Below, in pieces: positions 2,916-57,110 of a DNA stretch of 64,000 bases. The stretch's first letter is position 1. Each line of letters opens with the position of its first letter. The translations under genes were made by a program, and so were the position numbers. The notes beneath the pieces were generated by a model. It saw only the letters and a program-made list of their open reading frames with translations. It ran no database searches and was not told the DNA's origin. The stretch comes from Mobula hypostoma (Eukaryota), in contig NC_086108.1 in the NCBI RefSeq assembly GCF_963921235.1, positions 23,188,001-23,252,000 on the forward strand. Direction: 5' to 3'.

Positions 2916-5239
2916 ACCAATGCCAGTGAAAGATTTCAAATAATTTGTGCTCCAGTCACCAAATTGCCAGCAACACACATCAAAGTTGCTTGAATTTCCA
3001 GCATCTGCAGAATTCCTGTTGTTTACCAAATTGCCAGGCCATTTTATCCACAGAGAAGCCTGCAGAGGTTGGTATTTTTATTTCACCAAGTTCATTGACT
3101 CGACTTTGAGAGGAAATTTATTCTTGGAGAATTTGGCAGCAGCATGTAAAGACTGATCTTTAAAATCCTTGACTCTCTTCCAGGCCTAGCTGCTCAGAAA
3201 CAAGCATGACATAATTTAGCCGACATTCATTCACCTGGACAGCAGGGCATAATTATTTCAGCAGATCATGAGCTTGTCACATCAGCACGTGCACTGCAGG
3301 AGCAAATATTTTCACTGCAGTGTACAATGTGCCCCTTGAGTTTTATTGAAGCCTTGCAGTTGGAAGAGTGGGCGCTTACTGAAGGCAGTTTCCAGGAGTA
3401 TAATTCACTGGCTGACAGGCTTCCCCCTGCTGTACTGAAAATTCATTGAGGCTCTTCTATGGAAAGATAGGCTTTGACAGATATGGTCGGGGATGAATAC
3501 TCTTGCAGCAATGCTGGATGTGTGTTAGCTGCTGTTGATGGGAGAATGGCAGAATATTGGGCAGACTGTGTATCTAATGTACATGTAAACTCAATAAGGC
3601 AGATTGTTTGACCGCATCATCTGCCACAACCTGCTTGCAGCTTGATCTGATAAACTTACCCGTGGTACAGTACAGATCCCACCTACTGTTCCTTTCAAGA
3701 AGCATCTGACAGTATATCACACAATCAATGACTTGGCAAATTTGATTTCTGTGGACTTAATGATCGAGAATGAAATTGGCTGCAAATCAGAGAGCAGAGA
3801 GTAATAATGAACTGCGCATTAGATCAGAGACAAATATACAGTGGCGTCTCCAAGCAATGGTATCAGGAGTACTGCACAACTTGAATCACTTCTCTCTTGA
3901 GATAGGGTTTCAAATGATGCAAGGCTTGGAACAGTCTTTCAAGAAAAGGCAGAGCAGAGTGGTGAAAAGGATAGGCATCTAGCAGGTAGAATCAGTGCGG
4001 GGTTGAGTGGGCTAGACTTTTACCCGTGTCACTGAATGTTCTAGAATGGTCGGGTGTGCCAGTGATGGAGGAAAGCAAAGAGGGCCTTGCCATGTGGTGG
4101 CATTGAATTATTGAAAGTCAGACTTGGTAATGCCTTGCTTGGTTAAATAGTATCCAGCTTATTTCAGTTTTCAAATACTACCTTATTCTGGAGCGTAAAA
4201 GCAAACCTGGATTCTAAATCCTGAATGGAAGATGAATCTTTATGCATCAAGGAGTGGGCAATAATATCAGTTTTGTTAAGTTGTATGATTGGCCTTTGTA
4301 CCTTAAGTTATTTGAATAACAAAAGTGACAGATGATGTGAATCTGAAAACAAAACAGTAACTGTTGGAAACAGTTCTCAGGGAAGGCAGTATATGTGGAC
4401 CTGAGCTCATCAGATCCAGAGTCCGAATCTCAGTGCGATGAATGTATGTTCAGTCTGCCTGATGAAGGGCGTTTCATCTTGTAGGATCTGTGCATGAAAA
4501 TTGGTCCCTTGAGTCAGATCCCCATGAGGCTTCAGCTCCAGTGAACTTGTGTTCCAGCAAGGCGTTGAGAGATCCTGAACTGTGGCTGGCCTGTCCTGAG
4601 ATTGAACTGCAGGGTAATACAAAGGGTAGCTCTCTTGCTGAAATAGTAACTCTTAGGTATTGGAGCACCTTGTCATTTGGGCTCTTGATTTGGCCGACTT
4701 GGGAATGGAGGCCACCAGGTGGTCTGATGCTACTCGAAACTGCTTTGTCACTCAGGCACCCATGGTGACCCCACTAGTCATTCTCTGCCAATTGTGCCCA
4801 TCTCAGCTAGTTGCTAGCCACTTGCCATAATGAGGCTTCTCTATACAACTTCAGTCATTTACCTACTTGGTGTGTCTAAGGGCATACAGAACACTCTACT
4901 ATTACCTTGCTTTTCTCTTGTTGCCTGGTTCTGTTGTTCCAGTGGAGAGGACCAAGCTATTGACATTGATTAACTTGAAGCAGTCACTGATGATTCTGCA
5001 ACCTATACTGGGTGCAGAGTTAGTAGCTTTTGTGCAGGTAGAGCTTTACCAAACTGGACAAGTACACTTAACCTCGGAGTGATACAGTTGAGAAATTGTG
5101 GGTGGGTGTGCTCTCAATCTGAGTTTGCAAATTTCTGGATGGTGTTACTTTGCGCAATAACTTTTCTTTCTATCTTCTTAATGAGCACATGAGTATTTCA
5201 GTGTCATGCCAAATTAAACTGGAGTCGTGCAGCAGGACT

Positions 5240-13291: not shown

Positions 13292-14356
13292 TTGAATTGA
13301 ATTGACTTTATTTCTTACATCCTTCATATACATGAGGAGTAAAAATCTTTACATTATGCCTCTGTCAGAATGTGCAATTCATTGTAATTTGTAATAAATA
13401 GTATGTACAATAGAACAGTAAATCTAGGATAGAAATACAATTGTATCAATGTGAATTAATCACTCTGATGGCCTGGTGGAAGAAGCTGTCCTGGAGCCGG
13501 TTAATCCTGGCTTTAATGCTGCGGTACTGTTTCCTGGATGGTAGCAGCTGGAACAGTTTGTGGTTCAGGTGACTTGGGTCCCCAATAACCCATTGGGCCC
13601 TTTTTATGCATTTGTCTCTGTAAATATCCTGAATGGTGGTAAGTTCACATCTGCAGATGGGCTGGGCTGTCCGCACCACTCTGTAGAGTCCTGCGATTGA
13701 GGGAAGTACAGTTCCCATACCAGGCAGTGATGCAGCCAATCAGGATGTTGTCAATTGTGCAGTAGAAAGTCCTTAGGATTTGGGGACTCATGCCAAACTT
13801 CTTCAACTGTCTGAGGTGATAGAGGTGCTGTTGTGCTTTTTTCACCACACAGTCGGCCTGTACAGACCACGTGAGATCCTCGATGATGCATATGCCGAGG
13901 AACTTAAAGCTGTTCACCCTCTCAACCCCAGATGCATTGATATCAATAGGGGCTAGCCTGTCTCCCTTCCTCCTGTAGTCCACAACCAGCTCCTTTGTTT
14001 TTGCAACAATGAGAGAGAGGCTGTTTTCTTGACACCACTGTGTCAGGGTGATGACTACTTCTCTGTAGGCTCTCTTGTTATTATTTGAGGTAAGGCCAAT
14101 CAATGTAGTGTCGTCAGTAAATTTAATTAGCAGGTTTGAGCTGTGGGTGCGACACAGTCATGGGTCTACAGAGAGTAAAGGAGGGGGCTTTTACATTTAA
14201 CATTTAACTGTCATTCATTCTTTGGGGACACTCATCCGTTTTCGTGGATGGTTGCAAAGAAAAATCATTTCAGGATGTATATTGTATACATTTCTTTGAC
14301 ATTAAATGTACCTTTGAAACCTTAGGACACAGCCCTGAGGGGCTCCTGTGTTGAGC
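13292..14356 (-). mobile_element. Rex1/Babar-type LINE 3' fragment, with a nested ~130-bp LINE tail (14191-14320, +)
   Basis: RT C-terminus WCQENSLSL...KTKELVVDYR...FKFLG...CITAWYGN. (caatt)n tail after aataaa. Host sequence gggggctt resumes as aggacacagccctgagg (PQGCV) after the insert. Confidence 0.85.
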
Positions 14357-14850: not shown

Positions 14851-16464
14851 CTGGGTGGTGCCTGCCTGTGCAGGCCTGACAGAATCTGGAGGAATAAACG
14901 CTGGTGGAATTCTATACGTCAAGTAGCGTCTGTGGAGGGAAATGGACAGTCATCATGAAGGGCTAGCTGTCCATTTCCCTTCACAAATGCCAAGTGACTC
15001 ACTGAGTTCCGCCAGCAGTTTTTTTTGTTCTTGGCCTGAGTATCAGAGTATCAGATGGATGGATGCAGATTCAAACCCCTGCATCTCCAGTACTTTAAAT
15101 TCTAACTTTATTTCCCACACTCAACCAGCATCATGATCCAGTTTAATGAAAACTTGTCCTATGCTGGGCATTGGGCATCTTTCATACAGGGTGCTCAGTG
15201 AGTGGAGTAATTTTATATTTTCAGTCCTGGCTAGTTTACAATAGGAGTCCAGAAGGCTGCAACTTGCCCAAATGGGAGATGAGGAGCTGTTCCTTGAACT
15301 TGTGTGCAGTCACGTAATAGCAAAGTACCTTATTACTGGTTTGAAATCTAGTAGTGAACTGATATTTGTATTTGAATGTACAGTACCTTCTTGTGCTTCC
15401 AGTTTAAGAGCAAAAGTTACCTCTTAGTGTCCCTATAGTATAAGAATTGCTTTTCATTATGTACTTGGTAAGTTCATTCAGATCTATTTAACACAGCTAC
15501 ATTGTGCAGATATGAACCAACACCTATAAAGACTGGAAGTTTGTTAGCAGCATTTATACTTTGTTTGCAGAACATATCCGATACATCTCAAAAACCTAAG
15601 CTTAGGGGAAGAGAGGGGGAGCACCCTTCAGAAGCAGGAATGTAATTAAGAGTGTTCTGTCATACTAAAGTGCTCTCTGAAGGTGAAATTGCAGATATGT
15701 AATGTTTTTAAGATTAATGAATACAGTTCTCTTTTATGCTAATTATATGGATCCAGTGCATAATGTACTGTAACATTGGTATTTCTAATGGGATATATTG
15801 GTGGTGGTAATAGAATGGGTGTTAGATTGATGTAGTCATTATCTTTGTAAGATAACCTGCCTGCTACTGTGGAAGTGAGAAATTCTCTGGGTCATTAAAT
15901 ATAAAATTGTGGGTATTGGTGATGACAATTCTGGCTTGGCATTTAGAGCTGTTAATATTTTTCAGTACCAGTACGTGGAATGAACAGTTGGTTGACAAAT
16001 GAATTACAGTAGGAACACTGCCCAAATCACATAAAGTGGTAATATGATGTGAGAGGTTCCACAAGCACACTGTCAGTTCAGTTTTTCTGTGGGTTTTGAT
16101 CACAAGTTTTGAACAATTGTGTGTTTGGTAAATACTGAAATAATTTCATTACATTCATTGTTTGGTTGGTAGCGTCTTTTTTATAGTTACTCATGGGATG
16201 TTCACATGTTCTCCATCTCAGTTGTCCTTGAATGGATGGAACGCTTTGAGACAGTTAATGTATAAGCACAGAGTTTAGCAGACTAGGGGAATGAGAAACT
16301 CTGATTATACATGAAAAGTCAAGTGAAAGGAAGGAAGACAATCTTATGACAAGACAACATCTTCATGGTCAGTGAAGTACTTCTGAAATGCAGTGGCATT
16401 TGTGATGTGGGATATTGCTGAAGCCAATTTACTCTAAGATTCTGCAAATATTAATAGGACAATA

Positions 16465-16731
16465 TCGCAAAAACAAAGGAGCTGGTTGTGGATTACAGGA
16501 GGAATGGAGACCGGCTAACCCCTATTGACATCAATGGATCTGTGGTTGAGAGGGAAAACAGCTTTAAGTTCCTCGGCATACACATCACCGAGGATCTCAT
16601 GTGGTCTGTACACACCAGTTGTGTGGTGATAAAAAGCACAACAGCGCCTCTTTCACCTCAGATGGTTGAAGAAGTTTAGTAGGGGCACAATTGAGAGCAT
16701 CCTGACTGGCTGCATCACTGCCTGGTGTGGG
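16465..16731 (+). mobile_element. Rex1/Babar-type RT fragment fused to the 5' end of the Penelope-like element
   Basis: KTKELVVDYRRNGDRLTPIDING...FKFLGIHI...ESILTGCITAW. Very similar to the reverse complement of 13715-14005, with a ~30-bp internal deletion. Confidence 0.88.
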
Positions 16732-17262
16732 CCCCGTCCCTCTCTCTGCCACCAATCTGGGACTCACTCTCCACCATCTGCCAGGGACCTCTCCTACACT
16801 TCATTCTCCGTCGGATTCACACCTCCAAGAAGGACAACAAGCTCGCCCACCTGGAGCCCACGACGACAACTGGCTCCAGCCTGGACCAAAACCCCTCGGA
16901 CCGCTCTTACTGCTGCTGGGTCCTACCGCCCATCTTATTCTCCCACTACCCTCTTTCCTCCCATTGACTCCCAAACATCCCTCTATCCCTCATCGTCCAT
17001 CCATTCCTCTGATTCCCCATCCTCTCCCTCCTGAGACCACCCAGTCTTCACCCTCCTCCAACCCCAGCCCCAACCATTGCCATGTCTTCACCATCCCTGC
17101 TGACCTTCCTCTCTCTGAGGCAGAACATTCTGTCCTTAGCAAGGGCCTCACTTTTGTCCCCCTCCGTCCACACCTCAGTGAGTTCCGTGCCCGCCATGAT
17201 GTTGAACTCTTCTTCCGTCGCCTACGTCTCCGAGCCTGCTTCTTTGGCAAGGATTCCCTCCC

Positions 17263-19260
17263 CCTACTGATGACCCCTTCTCCTGTCTTCAACCCTCCTC
17301 CTCCTCCTGGACACCCCGCCCGGGCCTTCTACCTGCACTCGATCTCTTCATCTCCAACTGTCACCGAGACATCAACCGTCTCAACTTCACCACTCCTCTC
17401 TCCTGTTCCAACCTCACTCCCTCTGAACGCACTGCCCTCCACTCTCTCCGCACTAATCCAAACCTCACCATCAAACCTGCTGACAAAGGTGGTGCCGTAG
17501 TAGTCTGGCGGACGGACCTCTACCTCACTGAGGCCAAACGGCAGCTCTCTGACACCTCCTCTTACTTACCCCTGGAACAGGACCCCACCAAAAAACATCA
17601 AACCATTGTCTCCCGCACAATCACCGCCCTTATCAACTCCGGAGACCTTCCATCCTCAGCCGCTAAACTCATTATTCCCACACCCCGTACCGCTCGGTTT
17701 TACCTCCTCCCAAAGATACACAAGCCTGACTGTCCTGGCAGACCCATGGTTTCCGCCTGCTCCTGTCCCACTGAACTTGTATCTGCCTACCTGGACTCCA
17801 TTTTATCACCCATAGTTCAGTCTCTCCCCACCTCCATCCGGGATACATCCCATGCCCTCCACCTCTTCAATAACTTCCAGTTCCCCGGTCCCAACTGCTT
17901 CATTTTTACTATGGATGTCCAATCCTTATACACCTCCATTCACCATCAAGAAGGCCTTAAAGCCCTCCGCTACTTCCTGGATAATAGACCTCACCAGTTC
18001 TCCACCACCACTACCAACCTCCGGTTGGCGGAACTGGTTCTCACACTTAATAACTTCTCTTTTGGCTCTTCCTACTTCCTTCAGACTAAAGGTGTAGCTA
18101 TGGGAACTCGCATGGGACCCAGCTACGCCTGCCTCTTCGTTGGTTATGTGGAACAGTGTGTGCTCCAAACCTATTCTGGTACTGCTCCCCAACTTTTCCT
18201 TCGATACATTGACGACTACATTGGTGATGCTTCCTGCACCCATGCTGAGCTCGTCAATTTCATCGACTTTACTTCAAACTTCCACCCAGCCCTCAAATTC
18301 ACTTGGTCTATCTCTGACACTTCTCTCCCCTTTCTCGATGACTCGGTCTCCATCTCTGGAGACAGACTGTCCACTGACATCTTCTACAAGCCCACTGACT
18401 CTCAAAACTACCTCAACTATACCTCTTCCCACTCCGCCACATGCAAAAATGCCATTCCCTATTCCCAGTTCCTCCGTCTCCGCCGCATCTGCTCCCAGGA
18501 TGAGGCTTTCTGTTCCAGGACATCTCAAATGTCCTCTTTCTTTAAGGATTGTAGTTTCCCTTCTACGGTGATCAATAATGCCCTCACCCACATCTCCTCC
18601 ATTTCCTGCACTTCGGCCCTCACCCCGTCTTCCCACCACCACAACAGGGACAGGGTTCCCCTTGTCCTCACCTACCCCCCCTCCAGCCTCTGGATCCAGC
18701 ACATTATCCTCCACAACTTCCGCCGCCTTCAACAGGACCCCACCACTAAGCACATCTTTCCCTCTCCACCCCTCTCCACTTTCCACAGGGATCGATCCCT
18801 CTGCGACTCACTTATCCGCACGTCCATCCCCACGGATCTCCCACCCGGCACTTATCCCTGTAAGCGTAAGTGCTACACCTGTCCCTACACCTCCTCTCTT
18901 GCCACCATTCAGGGCCCCAAACAGTCCTTCCAGGTGAGGCAACACTTCACTTGCGAATCTGTTGGGGTCATCTATTGCATTCGGTGCTCCCGGTGTGGCC
19001 TCCTCTACATCGGTGAAACCCGACGCAGATTGGGGAACCGCTTCGTCGAGCACCTCCACTCCGTCCGCCACAACAGACAGGATCTCCCGGTAGCCATCCA
19101 CTTCAACTCTGCTTCCCATTCCCATTCAGATATGTCCATACATGGCCTCCTCTACTGCCATGATGAGGCTAAACTCAGGTTGGAGGAGCAACACCTCATA
19201 TACCATCTAGGTACTCTCCAGCCCCTTGGTATGAACATAGAATTCTCCAACTTCCGGTAA
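17263..19260 (+). pseudogene. Penelope-like RT/GIY-YIG open frame (about 665 codons), N-terminus frameshifted
   Basis: Same frame at 17461 (NLTIKPADKG) as the listed ORF from 17746. The upstream part lies in ORF 16727-17500. Confidence 0.85.
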
Positions 19261-19446
19261 TTCCCTCCCCCTCCCTTCCTCTATCTCTATTTCACATCAC
19301 CTCCCTCATAGTTCCGCCTCCTCCTACTGCGCATTGTTCTCCTGCCAATGACCTCCCTGCTTCCCCTCCCCCACCCCTTTGTCTTTCAAATTACTGTATT
19401 TTTCAGCTACCAGCATTCTTCAAACCCTCCCCAAAGTTCTTCCTTC

Positions 19447-19482
19447 AGTCCTGACGAAGGGTTTCGGCCCGAAATGTCGACT
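19447..19482 (+). ncRNA. Minimal type I hammerhead ribozyme motif
   Basis: AGUC-CUGACGA-A-GGGU(UUCG)GCCC-GAAA-UGUC^GACU. Stem I is AGUC/GACU, stem II has a UUCG loop, core nucleotides are conserved, and the predicted cleavage is after C19478. Confidence 0.85.
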
Positions 19483-19944
19483 AATCTTTTCAACTGATGC
19501 TGACTGACCTGCTGAGTTCCTCCAGCGCATTGTGAGTGTTCCTTTGACAACAGTATCTGCAGATTATTTTGTGTTTAATAGGACAATAACCAGATACTCT
19601 GCTTTTGTGATGCCGATTAAGGGATGAATACATACTAGGATGCAGAGTAACTGTTCTGCTCCCAGTATGTACAAATGTTTGTATTAAGAACACCCTTAAC
19701 TACATTCCTGCTCTGCTCTTATTAAATATTTTACATTTATTGATGGTTCTAACAAGTCATCTGAAAGATGTTGCTTCTGACAGCACATTTCCCTAACAAT
19801 ATCACACTATCTAGGTTACTTCTCAAGAGTTGAACCTACAAGCTGTTGACACAGATTCTGAAACAACGTTGGTGCTTTGAAACGCCAGTGAATTGAACCA
19901 AGCATTAGCAGTAGGAAATAATTGCTCAGAAGTACAAACACTTG

Positions 19945-26515: not shown

Positions 26516-26870
26516 TGAGCAAGGCTGTTGAATTATCATTAGGGCCAAGTGAAATTGGAAGTAAGAACAGAAAATTCTGGAAACTCTCAGCAAGTCAGGT
26601 TGCAGCTGTGGAGGGAGAAACAGTAATGTTTCAGGTGAAAACCCTTCATCAAAGCTGGTCACAGGTTTGAAAAGCTAACTGTCTCTCTTTGAACAGATGC
26701 TGCCGGAATTGTTGAGTGTTTTCATTATTTTCTATTCTCCTTTTAGGCTTTTGGCATCTGCAAGTAATTTTCACTTTCATTTGGTTCACTAAAATCTGTT
26801 ACATAAAAAACCTTACTGTATTCCCTGGTCTGGGTAACTTTTACAGCAACTTGGATGGAAAAATTTAGAA

Positions 26871-27242: not shown

Positions 27243-29330
27243 CCATAACACTATAAAACACAGAAGCAGAATTAGGCCATTTGACCCATCAAGTCTATCC
27301 CACGAGTCTTTCCAGCCATTCGACCATATCTGACCTATTTTCCCTCCAACTCTATTCTCCTGCCTTCTCCTTGTAAATCTTAACGGGTTTATTAATCAAG
27401 AACTTATTAACCTTTGATTTAAATATACCCAAATGACTTGGCCTCTATAGCAGTCTGTGACAGTGAATTCCACAGATTCGCCACTCTCTCGCTGAAGAAA
27501 TTCCTTTTCACCTCTGTTCTAAAGGGATGTCCTTCTTTTCTGAAGCTGTGTCCTCTGGTCCTAGCTTCTGCTACAATTGGAAACATCCCCTCTACATCCA
27601 CTCTATCTGGACCTTTCAATATTCAGTAGGTTTCAATGAGATTCCCACTCACTCTTCTAAACTTCAACGAGTACAGGCCAAGAGCCATCAGATCTTACTC
27701 ATGCAGTAACCTTTTAATTTTTGGGATCATTCCTGTAAACATCCTTTGGACCCTGTCCAATGCCAGCACATCCTCTCTTAGACAAGAGAAAATCCGCAGA
27801 TGCTGGAAATCTGAGCAACACACACAAAATGCTGGAAGAACTCAGCAGGCCAGGCAGCATCTATGAAAAAGAGTAAAGTTGACGTTTTGGGCCAAGACTC
27901 TTCATCAGAGCTGGTTCTGATGAAGGATCTCGGCCTGAAACATTTACGGTTTACTCTTTTCCGCAGATGCAGCCTGGCTTGCTGAGTTCCTCTAGCATTT
28001 TGTGTGCATTGCTTTGTGCCTTTGTAGCTTGTCAAAAGCCTTCTGATAGGCCAAATAAACAAGATCCACTCACTCTCCTCTGTTTTTCCTGCCTGTTATT
28101 TCATCAAAGGATTCCAACAAGTTTGGCAGGTAATATTTTCCCTTAAGGAAATCATGCTGATTTCCACCTGTTTTATCATGTGCCACTCAGTAACCTGAAA
28201 CCTCATCTTTAATAATGGACTCCAACATCTTAGCACCCACTGGTCAGGTTAACTGGCGTATCATTTCTTGTCTTTTGCCTGCCTCCCTTCTTAAAGAATG
28301 ATGTGATAGTTTCAATTTTCCAGTCCTCTGGAGCCATATTAGAATCTAGTTTCTTGAAAGATCACGACTAATACCTCCACAATCTATTCAGCCACAGTTG
28401 CTTCATCCTCCCTTTAAAATGCTGCTACTTCTTTGGGTTGAACCAATTTTGCATCTTCTGAATTACTCCCAGAAATTTCAGCCATTGCTGCTCTGCCATC
28501 ATTCCCGCTAGTGTGCCCTTCCAATCAACTTTGACCAGCTCTTCTCTCATGATTCTGTAGTTACCTTTACTCCATGATAATACTGAAACATCTGATTTTA
28601 GCTTCTCCCTCTCAAGCTGCAAGGTAAATTCTATCATGTTATGATCATTGCCTCTTATGAGTTCCTTTACCTCAAGCTTCTGAATTCAATCTGGTTCATT
28701 AAACAACACCAAATCCAGAATTGTCTTTTCCCTGGTGGGCTAGAACACAAGGTACTCTAAAAAACTATCTCATAAACATTCTATGAATTCCTTCCCCTGG
28801 CATGCAGCAGCAACATAATTTTTCTAGTCTGCTTGCATATTGAAATTTCCCATGACCATCAAAACATTGCCCTTTTTACAGGCCTTTTCTATATCCTGTT
28901 GCAATCTGTACCCCACATCTTGGCTACTGTTCAGAGGCCTGTATATAATTCTCATTCGGGTCTTTTTACCCTCGCTGTTTCTTAACTCTACCCACAAAGG
29001 ATTCTGGATCGTCTGATCCTATATCACTTCTTTCACAGGATAAGATTTTATTTTTTACCAACAGAGCCACCCCACCCCCTCTGTTACCTGCCTGAACTTT
29101 CAATATTATATGCATCCTTGGATGCTTAACTCCCAGCTGTTATCTTCTTTCAACCATGACTCAGTGATGCCCACACATCATACTTGCCAATTTCTAACTG
29201 CGCTGTAAGTTCATCTACCTTATTTTGTATACCGTATGCATTGAGATATGGCACTTTATAGTCCGGCATTCACCTCTCTTCGTTTCACTCTTCTTTTCGT
29301 TTAAAGCCCTATCCACAGCCCTTGTTTGTA
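27243..29330 (-). mobile_element. Decayed CR1 LINE (endonuclease to 3' tail) with deletions and a nested fold-back insertion
   Basis: Colinear with the 5763-8480 copy. RTRGHSFRKEGHPFRTEVKRNFFSERVANLWNSL. Confidence 0.85.
27782..28013. mobile_element. Penelope-derived fold-back element with two divergent hammerhead cores
   Basis: Arms cacacaaaatgctggaagaactcagcaggccaggcagcatct / agatgcagcctggcttgctgagttcctctagcattttgtgtg. Cores TCATCAG at 27902-27908 and CTGATGA at 27917-27923. Confidence 0.85.
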
Positions 29331-30957
29331 ATCCCAGATCTTGGTTCCAGCAAAGTTTATGTTCCATTGGAACAGCTCCCTCCTTCCCCAATACTGGGGC
29401 CAATGTCTCACAAATTCAAGCCCACTTCTCCCACCCAGTTTTCCATCCACACATTCACACCCCAACAATGAAAGGAAAGGAAGATGCTGTTGGCTAACAT
29501 CCGATAAGATGAAGGAAAATTTTTAAAAAAGTGGATATTGGAAATCTGAAACAAAAACAGAAAATGCTGGACACAACTGAATGTCATCAGCATCAGTGGA
29601 ACCGTAATTGATGTGAAATGTTGCCTGACCTACTGAGTGTTTCCAGCACTTTCTGTTTTTACTTCTGACGCAGTAGATTGTATAATTATGACTGTAGTGA
29701 AAGAGTGTAGTTGTAGCCACAAGTGACAGCAGGTGTTGGAATCCAGAGTAAAACACCAATAGCTGGACGAACTCAGTGTTGGGCAGTGTCTGTGGGGCAG
29801 AAGGAATCATCATTTTTCTCGACCCAAAATATCTACAATTCCTTTTGCCCCACAGATACTGCTTGACCTACTGAGTTCCGTCAGCAGTTTACTTTTTGGT
29901 GTAGTTTGCATTTGGACCAGTTACATGTTGGCATTGAGAGAAGGATGCACTGTACAATTTGGTTATACCCTTAGATCTGCACAAACTGTGCGTCACCTAC
30001 TGGTTGGCGTGTTTCTGTGCATGTTGTAATAATACTAGTGAGAATTGCGAGCAAGTTCAAATAAAACTCTGGGTTGCCTCATCTCAGGCCAATTGAAAAC
30101 ACATTTTCTGGCTTGGCTCTTACTGTGGTATTGGTTTCCAGACAATGTCAACCTCGATTGTAGTAAGTTTTCCCTGAAACTGTTTTGTAAACACACAGGA
30201 GGCCTTGGGAACACTTTGTTATGTTTGCATAATTGACCACAGAGGACCAGATCTTCAGTTGTTTATACTAAAAGCCTGGAACTGCCAGCTTCATTTGTAT
30301 CTTTAGGGAATGACCTGCTAATGTATGTCCCTGTGGAGAACTCCCATTCAAAGGCTGTTATATTTATGACTCTCTTTTATTACTTCTGTTGATATCTCCT
30401 GTTTAAAGGGAAACCCTAGCTAAAACATCAAATTGAGAAAAGCTCCACTGTTTTTTTAATGAAAATGAATGAAGGGGCAATACCTGCAATGCAGGAAGGA
30501 TCAGGCAGGAACTGGAAGATCTGTTACACCTCCAATGTAGCTTTGAAGGCTGTAAGATGTATCTGCATACAAACACACAAAAGAGCAAGAACCTGCATTT
30601 GTATATTGTCAGTCACATCCTCTTGACATCTGAAATTAATTTTTAGTGAATGATGTACTTTAGTCTCAGAGTCACAGAGAAATACACAACAGAAACAGGC
30701 CCTTCAGTCCACTAACTAACCTTCAAACATCCACGGACACTAATCCTACATTATTGCCAAGTTTTTATTCTCCCCACATTTTCAATATTTTCAATTGCTC
30801 CTACCTACCCCCACAAACCCCAAACACATTCAACCACTCACCTACTGTACACACTGGGGGCAACTTACTGTGGCCACTTAACCTATAAAGCTGTAGGTCT
30901 TTGGGATGTGTATGGAAACTGAAACACTTGGTGGAAACTCCATGCGGTTAATGCCCA

Positions 30958-35417: not shown

Positions 35418-35805
35418 AGCAACACACACAAAACGCTGAACGAACACAACAGTTCAAGCAGCATCTATGGAAAAGTGTAAACGGTCAATGTTTCTAGCCA
35501 AGACCCTTCTTCAGGACTGAGAAGGAAGGGGGAGATGCCAGAATAAAAAATGTGGGGGGAATGGAAGGAGGCGAGCTGGAAGGTGAAAGGTGAAACCAGG
35601 TATGTGGGAAAGGTCAAGCGCCAGAGAAGAAGGAATCTGATAGGAGAGGAGAGTGGACAATAGGAGAAAGGGAAGGAGCAGAGGACCCAAGGGAAAGTAA
35701 TAGGCAGGCACGAAGAAGTAAAAGGTGAGAGTGGGGAATTTGGGGGGGGGGGGTGATTTGTTCGCCAGAAGGAAAAATCAGTATTCATGCTATTAGGTTG
35801 GAGAA
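35418..35805 (-). mobile_element. Penelope-like 3' end with hammerhead-like motif
   Basis: The minus strand reads MNTDFSF (compare MNIEFSNFR), a pyrimidine-rich UTR, then agtcctgaagaagggtcttggctagaaacattgacc. Confidence 0.85.
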
Positions 35806-39343: not shown

Positions 39344-40277
39344 ATTCGATGCTCCAACTGATCAACTGATGAAGGCAAACATACCATATACCTTCTTTAT
39401 CACCCTATGTAATTGTGTTGCCACTTACAGTGAGTTATGTACTTGGGCCCCAACATGCCTCTCTCTGCACATCAGAGACCTGAAGGGTCCTGCCATTTAC
39501 TGTTTAGCTTCCTCTTACGTTTGATCCCTCATTTTACAGCATCTCACACCTGCTCAGATTAAACTTTGTTGACTAGTTCTCTGCCCATATCTGCAGTTGG
39601 TCTATGTCCTGCTGTCTCCTTCATTGTCCACAACTCCATTAATTTTTGTGTCATCCACAAATTTATTAATAAGCCCATCTTCAAAATGTCAAAATGGACA
39701 GCATTCTGAGCCCTAAGTCCTGTTGAGTTTCATAAAGGAGGAGAAATGTAAAGATGAAGAGGAGCTTTTGTGAGGACCTTCCAGGGAAACTTGGAATTAG
39801 AGTAATCTTTGGAGGATTTGAGTAGTCATTAGGACTGGAGGTGATTACTAAGAAAGGGAGGGTAGGAACTTGGAGAGACTTGAAAGTAACAGTAAAAGGC
39901 ATGACTGGAGACAGTGCTTAATTGATATACATTGATATTTGCTGACAATTGAAAAACTAAAGCTAAAGAAAAACACAAATTAAAAGCTGTAAGTTCTGGG
40001 AATACTCAGCAGGTCAACAGCATCACTGTTGGGAGAAAAAGAGTCAATATATCAGGTCAAAAATTTCACTATTGCTCATTTCTTCCATTATGATGGAAGC
40101 ACATAATTGGCTGTAAGGCATTTAGGACATGCTGAGTTCTTGAGAAGTACAATTGAAAAGCAAGTTCCTTCTTCGCATACATTGCAGGAATAATGACCGA
40201 ACATATTGTGCTGTTGTTACTAATCTCGTAAGAAATGATACATAGAAAGTGAATGCTCTTTCTGCCTTTTATTGCAG

Positions 40278-41340
40278 GGCTCTTTGATAATTGCTCCTAT
40301 TCACTCAGTGAGAAGGGTTGGAAGATTGGCATTCAATCATTAGAATATTCCGGAAGGAAGGATCCTCGCTTTTTCTTCTCTCTCCGCACAGACAGAGCCA
40401 GAAAAGCCACCACCATCTTTGCCCACCACAATTACCATCCCAACTCTTGGACTTACCTAGCTGTCTCTTACGATGGCCGGCAGATGCTGCTCTATATCAA
40501 TGGAGCCAGAGTTGGGGCCAGCACCAGGCAGTCAGGGAATCTGCACAGTGAGTTCATGAGTTCTTGCCGGACGCTACTGATCGGTGGGGACAGCTCTGGG
40601 AATAGACATAATTTCCGTGGTTACCTGGCCAGCTTTACCCTGTGGAGGACCGTGAAGTCCCAGGCTGAATTAGTGAAGAGCTACCACCAAAGTATGCCAG
40701 GAAGAGATTCCTCCTTGGTTTTGATGGCAGATTTCTCCAGGATGGAAGAACAATGGATTCCAAATAAGGACTCCCGTTATCCCATCCGCAACATAATGCT
40801 TCTACCAGAGCCAGAGTTAGCATCTCCCTTGACTCCTCCACCCTGTGGGCTGACAGTTTGTGACAATATTGATGTTATCAAGAACTACAACAGTTATTGG
40901 CCACTAAGGGGAGAGAAGCTGATACGCTACCGAGTGATTAACATTTATGATGATAATCGGCAAAACCCCACAGTAACAAAACAGCAGATTGAGCTCCAAC
41001 ACCAAGCACTGAACAGGGCCTTCAGCAGGTATAACATAACCTGGGATCTCACTGTCACTGAGGTCCTCAACTCGACCATTCGGAACCGAGTAGTCCTGGT
41101 CAACTGTGAGACGAGCAAAATTGGGAATGACCACTGTGACCCCGAGTGTGATCACCCCATGACTGGCTATGATGGTGGGGACTGTCGATCCATGGGAAAG
41201 TGCTATCTGTGGAAGAGGCGGGACGGGATCTGCAACATGGAATGCAACAACATGGTGGATGATTTTGATGACGGTGACTGCTGTGATCCCATGTTTACCA
41301 ATGTGCAGAAAACTTGTTTTGACCCTGACTCTCCAGAAAG
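40278..41340 (+). CDS. pappa2: Internal coding exon of pappalysin-2 (PAPP-A2 metzincin): LamG-like domain, N-terminal part of the protease domain, LNR1 and LNR2
   Basis: Translation GLFDNCSYSLSEKGW...RFFFSLRTDR...FMSSCRTLLIGGDSS...YWPLRGEKLIRY...KIGNDHCDPEC...CNNMVDDFDDGDCCDP...TCFDPDSPER. As I recall the families, YWPLRGEK, FMxSCR, GNDHCDPEC and DFDDGDCC are PAPPA2-type rather than PAPPA-type. Acceptor: pyrimidine tract plus ttgcAG ending at 40277 (phase 1). Donor: AG|GTAGGA at 41340/41341 (phase 2). Confidence 0.95.
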
Positions 41341-42254
41341 GTAGGAATACTTTACTTTCATTGGCATTCATGGAAGATCACTACTCTGGAGCGTTTTGAA
41401 TGCTAGATCCCTGGAAGTATTTAGCGAGGAGGGAAATACATTAATAAAAGACTGCGTGACTGAAGTGGGGCTGAGGCTTGGGGCAGATCAATCATGATCA
41501 TATTAAATGGTGGGACAGATTTGTCAGACTGAGTGGCCTATTTCTGCTCCTATGTTCTTGCATCCTTGTATGATTGGTACTGTGAATTGAAACATTCACT
41601 AGTTCAGCGTGACCTGCCACCATCTGTAAGGAGTTTGTACTTTCTCTCCGTGACTGTGTGGGTTTCCTCCAGGTGCTCTGGTTTCCTCTTATAGTCCAAA
41701 GATGTACCGGTTGGTAGGTTAATTAGTCATTGTAAATTGTCTTATAATTAGGCTAGCGTTAAATCTGGTGTTGCTATTTCAAGTTGAAATAGTATGATAT
41801 TAGAACAATGTTGAACAACCACCATAAAGAGTACTGATATGGGACTTCAGTTACTGCTTGCTTCAATTACAACTTGGTTGCGAACAATCATGGACTAGTT
41901 GGGTCAAAACGGCTGGATCCATGCTGTATTGCTCTATAACTCTAATCCCACAATTAACCAGTTTTTGTTAGTTCTCTGCTGTGGCAGTTATTACAGATTG
42001 TAGTCAAACTGAACCTTGACACACCCCCTAAAAAAATCTTGGGACACTATGCTTAAACTTTTTAACCAGCAGTCCAAAGTCTTATTGATACATAAATATT
42101 GGACGAAATTATTTGTTTCTGTAATATGTGTGTTCTTAAATTATTCAGGCCCCTGATAATACACCGGAAATTTAGGAAGCTGAGAGTGACTTCCACAGCC
42201 AAGGCAATCTGGAAGTGGGTGCAATGCTGTATTTGAGGCTGTATGGCACATATA

Positions 42255-52363: not shown

Positions 52364-53720
52364 TGAGGACGTATAGAGCAGTTCAACACTTGCAGGCATC
52401 AATAAAAGTATGAAGTTTTTTTTTACTTTTGCGTGGGTGACAATGCCAGCATTTTGTTTTTCTGTGACTTTATGTCGTACTTCCATCCAGTGTTCTATTC
52501 TTTTGAGTCAGTGTCTCACGTTTTGTGCGTTGGAGCTTCCCCAGGGTCACTCGGAAGCTGCCTGATTATTAATATGACCCTCACCTTGTTGCTGGGTTCT
52601 TCATAGAGGGCTTGATTCAGGGCCTGATATTACCCCACATTCTTGTCGCAACTTTCTCCTGTACTGACATAGGACATGGCTTTAAATCAAAAGTGTGATT
52701 CTCACCTGTGTTTGAAGGGACTAAAGACAATTGTCAGAGTCCGATGGTCAATGTGTCCAAGGACATTTGGGAATTCAGCCATTCGATCTTTCCAAACTTC
52801 TGTGGCTCAGCATCAGACCTAACCTGTCAAAATGCTTCTTGGCATTCTGATCAAAGGTACGTCATTAAAATTGATCTGATTTATCATATTTATTACTTAC
52901 TTTGAACTTGGCTTGTGCACTCATCCTCCACATACTTTTTGTCATAAAGTTGGCTGATTATCTCACTGAGAGTTCCAGTTAATCTGAATTTGCCTCTTGA
53001 AATGTCTTAAAGAGTCATCATATACTTGTCACCAAGCTAGAGAAATAAGGAGAGAGAGCTGCCCACTCCTACTGTTAACCTCTCTGTCCATCTGATTAAT
53101 TCAGTTCTTGGAATTGGCACAGGCCTCTGGATGAGCTGTGAGCTTGGTTTGTTGCCCAAATTATTAAGTAATTGGGACACCTAGAAAATCTTTGATACCC
53201 TTAGTAGAACAATAGTCCAACAAAATATTGAGTATACAGGTGGCCAGGTGGTACTGAAAAGTGAACAGGATCCATTCTTGATTTTTGTGGTGCTCTGTGT
53301 CTGGGAACACCATTTTTAGACTATACAATTCACACTTAGGGCAGTTTCAAGTGGGGAGCAGGTCCCAGGGAGTGTGATCAGATATTAGCAGCAGAAAGAT
53401 CAACCATCACTCCATTTATGTTGCAATTAGTGTAATGACTTCCTGGCGAAAACTCATTTGGCACAGCTTCATCTTCTGATGCGATGATGTCACATCCACC
53501 ACTTTGTTGCCCCGATGAATTACTGATGCTGGAATTAATACCCTAATCATAATTAAACTTGGCCTCTCCCAAACCTTCTGAAGCCACATGGTCTATCCTC
53601 TCCTTTGAACCCTTCTGCCAATTACAGCCTCTGGACTGAGAATCAGTAACCTGGCATTCCCTTGGAGTGAACCTGCTATCTTCTAATACTGGGCAGCAAA
53701 GTACTTCCATCTCTGTCACT

Positions 53721-53907
53721 AACAGGAGAAAATCTGCAGTTGCTGCAAATCCAAGCAACACACACAAAGTGCTGGAGGAACTCAGCAGGCCAGGCAGCAA
53801 TTACAGAAAGAAGTACTGCCGAAGGGTCTCGGTCCAAAACGTCGACTATTCTTTTTGCCATAGTTGTTGCCTGGCTGCTGAGTTCCTCCTACATTTTGTG
53901 CGTGTTG
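53721..53907. mobile_element. 187-bp Penelope-derived fold-back element with 14-bp TSD
   Basis: Inverted arms caacacacacaaagtgctggaggaactcagcag / ctgctgagttcctcctacattttgtgcgtgttg. Flanks are CCATCTCTGTCACT (53707-53720) and CCATCTCCATCACT (53908-53921). Confidence 0.85.
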
Positions 53908-54099
53908 CCATCTCCATCACTTTTTTTTTAAGTATACTTACTGATGCCATTTTATTCCTGTTTTGTGACATTGGCCTTGCAAGTTCACAGGTCATCATTT
54001 CTTATGGTAAGATGAGTCAGAAACCCTGAATTTTATTTTCTGTTTTACATCTCCTCTATTTCAGTTATTTTTTTTTCATTTCAGTTTACAAAAAAAAAA

Positions 54100-56764: not shown

Positions 56765-57110
56765 GTCTCCTCCCCCTTCCCTTTCTTCCATGGCCTTCTG
56801 TTCTCTCCTTATCAGATTCCCCCTTTTCCAGCCCTTTATCCCTTTCACCAATCAACTTCCCAACTCTTTAATTCACCCCTCCCCTTCTCCTGTTTTCACC
56901 TATCACCTACTACCTTGTGTTTCTTCCTCCCCTCTCCTCACCTCCTTACTTTTGACTTCTCATCTTTTCTTCTCCAGTCCTGATGAAAGGCCTTGGCCTG
57001 AAACATCCATGTTTATTATTAACCATAGCTGCTGCCTGGCTCGCTGAGTTCCTTCAGCATTTTGTGTGTGTTGTTTGGATTTCCAGTATCTGCTGATTTT
57101 CTCTCGTTTG
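56765..57110 (+). mobile_element. Penelope-like 3' UTR with decayed hammerhead
   Basis: agtcCTGATGAaaggccttggcctGAAAcatc at 56976-57007, followed by the shared terminus ...ttccagtatctgctgattttctc. Confidence 0.85.

Follow-up and report, generated by a model that had tools for sequence, protein, structure and literature searches.

The 187-bp insert at 53721-53907 was, with a probability of about 0.9, produced in a single event by an endonuclease-positive (EN+) Penelope-like element (PLE) and was dead on arrival. Within the window (the whole 64-kb stretch of DNA that was analysed), it is best read as a doubly 5'-truncated, inverted PLE copy with the known inverted-copy-plus-tail layout, which has since decayed. 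It is probably an ordinary feature and not a new self-copying element. The first-pass annotation had proposed a protein-free hairpin product of the Penelope machinery, either a retrozyme-like non-autonomous family or an extreme truncation with an inverted terminal repeat. The hairpin product and the truncation are retained. The retrozyme-like family is unsupported because the unit is not in tandem, two core bases of its hammerhead are lost, the joins of seven fold-backs in the window differ, and the tail is one-sided, as left by fresh PLE integration. The insert and its flanks consist of the following parts:

53707..53720, no strand: left copy of the target-site duplication (TSD), 14 bp, 12/14 match to 53908-53921
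53721..53754, minus strand: PLE 'tail', a 34-nt extension on the left arm only, aligning with the copy ends at 27782, 57107, 19574 and 3022
53755..53815, minus strand: left arm, antisense pseudo-LTR terminus, profile positions 157-251 (cut site after 150)
53812..53848, plus strand: decayed minimal type-I hammerhead forming the loop, identified by a motif match with 3 mismatches and by alignment with other copies
53844..53907, plus strand: right arm, sense pseudo-LTR terminus to the tail-less end, ending like the copies at 28013 and 35416
53908..53921, no strand: right copy of the TSD, 14 bp, 12/14 match to 53707-53720

What is seen directly is the anatomy, the constancy of the two outer ends, the variation of the inner joins, the TSD and the presence in relatives. 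The annotated length and coordinates, with flanks at 53707-53720 and 53908-53921, were recovered as given, with a 1-nt ambiguity at the right end. The left arm, described as the reverse complement of the Penelope terminus, is 81% identical over 69 nt to 19498-19565 (E 2e-12), and the right arm, described as a sense copy of the terminus starting at a mutated hammerhead, is 76% identical over 96 nt to 19447-19540. The expected hairpin is likewise borne out by an RNA fold of -92.5 kcal/mol (z -9.8), as good as which none of 200 shuffles was found, with 53755-53815 pairing with 53842-53908. The annotation missed that the fold-back is asymmetric: the left arm is 34 nt longer and 53721-53754 has no partner. 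Profile matches at 53722-53816 (minus strand) and 53812-53915 (plus strand) lie head-to-head, and the left arm ends about 4-6 nt before the predicted hammerhead cut site. Aligned with one another, the window copies have two alternative ends, one including the 34-nt piece and the other lacking it; contig joints at 53720-21 and 53753-54 occur in the runs of all four relatives, so that the two outer ends recur. In their core, the arms are nearest each other (88% identity, against 72-85% to seven other termini), which fits a single template subfamily.

The flanking 14-mers match at 12 of 14 positions (chance <1e-3), so that the proposed 14-bp TSD is upheld by flank similarity and not by an empty site. 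In 20,000 trials with random 187-bp stretches of the window, an end match of at least 12/14 had a frequency of 5e-5 without slack and 8.5e-4 with 5 nt of slack. The two mismatches form one dinucleotide, TG versus CA, as had been annotated, for which CpG decay on opposite strands would be the parsimonious explanation; the 40 of 96 rows listed for the relatives give no letters for these two positions. The window has 42% GC and a CpG observed/expected ratio of 0.26. The duplication length is the same as that of a related element in the window, as also claimed earlier, where the repeat is 14/14:

16451..19588, plus strand: related PLE, 5'-truncated, with RT and GIY-YIG; frame 17206-19260, hammerhead 19451, tail end 19574, 14-bp TSD

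The 684-aa frame at 17206-19260 has matches in Pfam to RVT_1 (E 4e-6) and to GIY-YIG (E 3e-4), each falling a little short of its curated cut-off. Its best named relatives are ray and shark proteins, from Hypanus, Mobula, Chiloscyllium and Rhincodon (61-81% identity), so that the host is probably a ray. The insert is 75% identical to this PLE in the arm core, a value which places it, as judged from sequence, in another subfamily. The frame has a CxxxCxxC motif ahead of the GIY-YIG domain, a feature which may correspond to the Zn-finger-like motif between RT and endonuclease of Neptune and Nematis PLEs (PMC8557442). The TSD of this PLE also encloses, at the 5' end (16451-16731), a 265-bp LINE reverse-transcriptase fragment which is 81% identical to 13714-14004 and suggests template switch or capture at integration. 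In three long termini (19435-19450, 56965-56979 and, on the minus strand, 35515-35530), a pyrimidine tract followed by CAG stands just before the hammerhead core and recalls 3' splice sites; the Penelope element of Drosophila virilis has an intron whose end maps to the start of helix I (PMC4209133).

The hammerhead core of the insert starts at 53816 and the predicted cut falls between 53843 and 53844. Its motif (up to 3 mismatches) has seven matches in the window and none in 100 shuffles, the nearest to the insert being 3.2 kb away. The core is changed at 53819 and 53836, which we take to be A6 and G12 on our numbering of the hammerhead core. Both are important for hammerhead catalysis, and the ribozyme of the insert should therefore be inactive: its catalytic core is not intact and inactivity is predicted from the sequence. 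The change at 53836 is such as CpG decay would be expected to give. The motif has an extra base after A9, a G10.1-C11.1 pair, a palindromic 15.2-16.2 and a short helix I. It agrees with the minimal hammerheads described for PLEs (Cervera and De la Pena 2014, PMC4209133) in having no true helix III, in the palindromic 15.2-16.2, in the extra base between positions 9 and 10.1, in the short helix I, and in the dispersion of copies, some of them close together on opposite strands. It differs from them in the loss of A6 and G12 and in having no partner for a dimeric fold. Such hammerheads, 100-700 bp apart on opposite strands, have been ascribed to truncated PLEs, and elasmobranchs are not named in the accessible text of that source (PMC4209133). 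A search of the window with Rfam gave no match at gathering scores and, at E up to 10, seven sub-threshold matches without a hammerhead; these, five of them to miRNA hairpin models, were rejected as generic hairpin matches.

The layout is that of inverted-terminus insertions of EN+ PLEs, with which the insert has in common the head-to-head termini, the tail on one arm (here of 34 nt), the TSD, a palindromic segment where the arms meet and, here in the same window, a cognate element with RT and GIY-YIG. In contrast to those insertions, both arms are cut to about 95 nt, which leaves no coding sequence, and the loop is the hammerhead itself. Rotifer examples have an inverted pLTR, an optional 31-bp tail at one inverted copy and TSDs of 8-10 bp, compared with 14 bp here, and palindromes occur at the inverted junctions (Arkhipova et al. 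2013, PMC3846280). Indeed, an inverted 5'-truncated copy with a 30-40 bp tail at one end is typical of PLEs (Craig et al. 2021, PMC8557442). A literature search (titles and opening abstracts, with most subscription papers and Repbase/Dfam outside its scope) returned no description of this elasmobranch family, and a search of like scope found the inverted join nowhere tied to the hammerhead.

The insert is one of seven PLE fold-backs in the 64-kb window, which range from 55 to 232 bp. The census profile was seeded with ten window termini, which match by construction; at E up to 1 it gave 23 matches in the window, and 0 or 1 in each of 10 shuffles. Twelve of the 23 matches form six head-to-head pairs, one of them the 187-bp insert. 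The other fold-backs are:

2970-3024 (2958..3036 with TSD), no strand: 55-bp fold-back, the smallest, both outer ends as in the 187-bp insert, no hammerhead; read by eye
14896-15021: head-to-head pair (profile)
26565-26724: head-to-head pair (profile)
27782-28016: head-to-head pair (profile); as a 232-bp fold-back at 27782..28013, no strand, with both outer ends as in the 187-bp insert, two head-to-head hammerheads and no TSD found
29534-29674: head-to-head pair (profile)
29726-29890: head-to-head pair (profile)

The two outer ends are common to the fold-backs where readable, the inner joins differ, and one of the seven has no hammerhead. On the profile scale, where the core starts at 123 and the cut falls after 150, the inner arm ends of the insert lie at about 157/119-123 and those of the other six at 117/120, 148/about 123, 117/138, 165/172, about 150/134 and 214/about 203 (values with 'about' were read by eye). 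A tail is found on one arm only in all five window fold-backs in which it is recognisable. Most inner joins are in or near the hammerhead, two of them at stem I (the 187-bp insert and about 14881-15032); those of the 55-bp and 29534-29674 fold-backs are away from it. The 55-bp fold-back combines a 15-nt tail-less arm with a tailed arm and has a TSD of 12/12 (13/14 when extended). The TSD search revealed no convincing repeat at 27782-28013, 29722-29878 or 29550-29663, and 7/8 only at 14878-15026. Four fold-backs (14881-15032, 26565-26724, 29534-29674 and 29726-29890) are older and belong to other subfamilies, and that at about 14881-15032 has an internal loop deletion as well as its stem I join. 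The two-hammerhead fold-back lies within a LINE copy (27245-28385) from which about 580-610 bp are missing there relative to two other copies. The lack of a TSD at 27782-28013, together with this gap, points either to insertion with target deletion or to a later deletion.

How the insert acquired its form is less certain than what it is. In LINE-1 twin priming, two target 3' ends prime two cDNAs, which gives an inversion inside one TSD. The insert is similar in that it can be read as two primed cDNAs within one TSD: each arm corresponds to an antisense cDNA reading inward from a target 3' end, with the tail on one arm alone. However, the two LINE-1 cDNAs come from different parts of one RNA, whereas both arms here copy the same segment, so that two templates or a tandem transcript would be needed. 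It is reasonably likely that each of the two target strands primed a cDNA and that the pair was joined at the hammerhead; that the event involved twin priming, and that the annealing took place there, is what we infer. The GIY-YIG endonuclease would nick both target strands 14 nt apart. On the PLE RNA, one target 3' end would prime cDNA synthesis from the outer start site (that of the tail) and the other from the inner one, which lies at a distance of 34 nt. Each cDNA would come to a stop after 90-95 nt, within the hammerhead, and the two could anneal via the self-complementary stem I region. Once filled in, the product would be an inverted repeat that has its tail on one side, the hammerhead as its loop and a duplication of 14 bp, and it would then decay. 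Staggered nicks, dual priming, early stops and annealing would together account for the inverted arms, the tail on one of them, the TSD and the differences between joins.

Part of this pathway has been observed in vitro. The protein of a lizard PLE cuts the two strands of its target and extends each of them, the tail is the segment between two internal RT start sites, and hammerhead cutting is not needed for insertion in vitro. RNA-seq reads that end at the cut were not seen (Frangieh et al. 2024, PMC11167929). No demonstration that twin priming gives such products for PLEs was found in the accessible text of the PLE literature cited here. Several observations speak against this reading: the join falls 4-5 nt short of what a clean stem-I join would give, a second, older fold-back (about 14881-15032) is likewise joined at stem I, two contig pieces from relatives cross the join of the insert gaplessly, and no empty site appears among the joints listed for the relatives.

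Palindromes at inverted junctions have been interpreted as traces of self-priming, in which one cDNA or antisense template folds back at, in this case, the hammerhead palindrome (model of Arkhipova et al. 2013, PMC3846280). The partial self-complementarity of the hammerhead region and the position of the join within it agree with such a course. The outer ends do not: copy-back on one strand gives arms with equal ends or a shorter second arm, and the cDNA-sense strand which bears the loop starts at the tail-less end, so that the 34-nt tail would be untemplated without a second priming event. Moreover, the 55-bp and 29534-29674 fold-backs are joined away from the hammerhead. Self-priming thus seems improbable here.

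The history of the insert can be followed in four relatives (B, D, G and K), which provide four of 24 runs listed and were compared as contigs from one run each. Left-flank contigs of single-copy depth enter the element in all four, to 53750, 53768, 53751 and 53750, respectively, with 14/351, 22/369, 24/352 and 26/349 differences. They carry 30, 48, 31 and 30 letters of the element, two of the four reaching the 31 letters taken as the threshold, and on the right-flank side one contig reaches 53884. As orthologous contigs enter the element in 4/4 runs, the insertion is old and probably predates the four relatives. No joint that skips the element, as expected of an empty site, is present among the 15 of 142 joints listed for them. 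The PLE terminus family is very abundant in these relatives: 48,296-67,545 contigs per run carry the terminus, a figure for abundance and not for copy number. A pattern scan for other copies, which is silent on copy number, gave none in viral, genome and metagenome contig collections, which are not of animal genomes.

The best-supported loose ends behind 53797-53799 run on as ordinary terminus into the antisense hammerhead. Over 53805-53831, the summed depth amounts to 1.0-1.2% of its peak (53751-53777), a share which is a loose bound on the join owing to the insert's own changes at 53800-53815 and to best-place assignment. Other fold-back skips (53793 to 53876; 53799 to 53875 or 53877) are among the joints listed, as are tandem go-backs, none of them found in more than 8 contigs per run; a copy with the insert's own join would produce no joint in this comparison. 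Among the rows listed, two contig pieces, from relatives D and K, align gaplessly across the join of the insert, one over 94 nt and the other over 88 nt; each shows 15 differences, compared with 6-7% in the flanks. From their sequence they may be orthologues, or paralogues which share the join. Three gapped pieces that extend a few bases past the join were rejected as evidence for a shared join because, as a control showed, ordinary terminus aligns past it via the near-palindromic hammerhead.

These pieces bear on a different origin of the short join, according to which a longer two-hammerhead inverted copy, comparable to 27782-28013, later lost its antisense hammerhead by deletion between stem-I direct repeats. 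Near-perfect palindromes are prone to losing their centres, a two-hammerhead form with matching outer ends is present in the window, the 14881-15032 fold-back shows an internal loop deletion, and the 4-5 nt shortfall at the join would also be accounted for. Nevertheless, the short join is already present in the gapless pieces from D and K, so that, if they are orthologues, the deletion would be nearly as old as the insertion, and no longer allele appears among the rows listed. Although unlikely, a later deletion, in the same way as self-priming or twin priming, would leave the insert a dead PLE insertion.

Only a self-propagating, ORF-less hairpin family, copied in trans by the PLE protein (retrozyme-like, or a 'retro-MITE'), would alter this assignment, and we consider it very unlikely. 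It would find room for the second stem-I-joined fold-back of the window and for the two gapless join-crossing pieces, which are more diverged than the flanks. In rotifers, pLTR sequences suffice for mobilisation in trans (PMC3846280), and retrozymes have been proposed to be PLE derivatives (10.64898/2026.07.22.740005). The insert indeed resembles the non-LTR retrozymes (PMC7229834; 10.64898/2026.07.22.740005) in being small, non-coding and PLE-related, with a type-I hammerhead, a TSD of more than 4 bp and an RNA that would be self-paired if transcribed. Retrozymes, however, consist of head-to-tail tandem units, each with a complete hammerhead, and form circular RNA (Cervera and De la Pena 2020, PMC7229834; Li, Clavereau and Pollet 2026), whereas the insert is one inverted unit whose only motif is dead and which lacks a second cut site. 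In its mode of origin it is best likened to a twin-primed retro-insertion, and not to a retrozyme. A hairpin family is also at odds with seven fold-backs of differing joins and subfamilies, with the single mutated hammerhead outside any tandem unit, and with the fact that no second copy of the insert's join and subfamily was found in the 64-kb window. In addition, regeneration of the unit would require the transcript of each strand to begin precisely at one outer end, and no feature observed marks such a start. Since stem I gives every integration a similar short homology, a breakpoint shared there is by itself no proof of a replicating family.

In two of the seven fold-backs (53721-53907 and about 14881-15032), one arm ends at most about 6 nt from the cut and the other starts at the core. 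This pattern could be produced if the hammerhead itself set the join, a cDNA that ran off at the ribozyme-cut 5' end of the RNA annealing via stem I to a cDNA of uncut ribozyme. Such a role is doubtful, as stem-I homology alone, or a later deletion, explains the 2/7 pattern equally well. If it were true, single-hammerhead hairpins would be recurrent and a genomic footprint of PLE ribozyme cleavage in vivo, and some might spread as an ORF-less hairpin family.

Taken as a single insertion, the insert is of little weight, an old, decayed copy common to relatives. The fold-back class to which it belongs is nevertheless dense (seven in 64 kb). With outer ends that stay fixed and joins that vary, the class documents the integration process of PLEs, on which there is no agreement yet. 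Joins surveyed across ray genomes could discriminate between twin priming and self-priming and show whether PLE hammerheads cut in vivo; if they peaked precisely at the cut site, this would speak for a ribozyme that shapes its template.

Other arrangements of the same terminus occur in the relatives. Joints from 53720-21 to 53753-57, present in 4/4 runs, fuse a tailed end to a tail-less end on the opposite strand, tail-to-tail, which is the rarer PLE arrangement (Arkhipova et al. 2013, PMC3846280). Joints from 53797-53800 to 53753-53768 show that, in the relatives' contigs, the arm that follows the hammerhead also occurs in short repeats arranged head to tail, possibly mini-tandem products of the same machinery. 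In the window itself, a large pappalysin-2 exon on the plus strand (40253-41344, E 8e-154, with LamG and LNR domains) indicates that the insert probably lies within an intron of this gene. At 268-2925, a tandem array of a unit of ~33 bp with an 818-aa repetitive open frame is probably a minisatellite.
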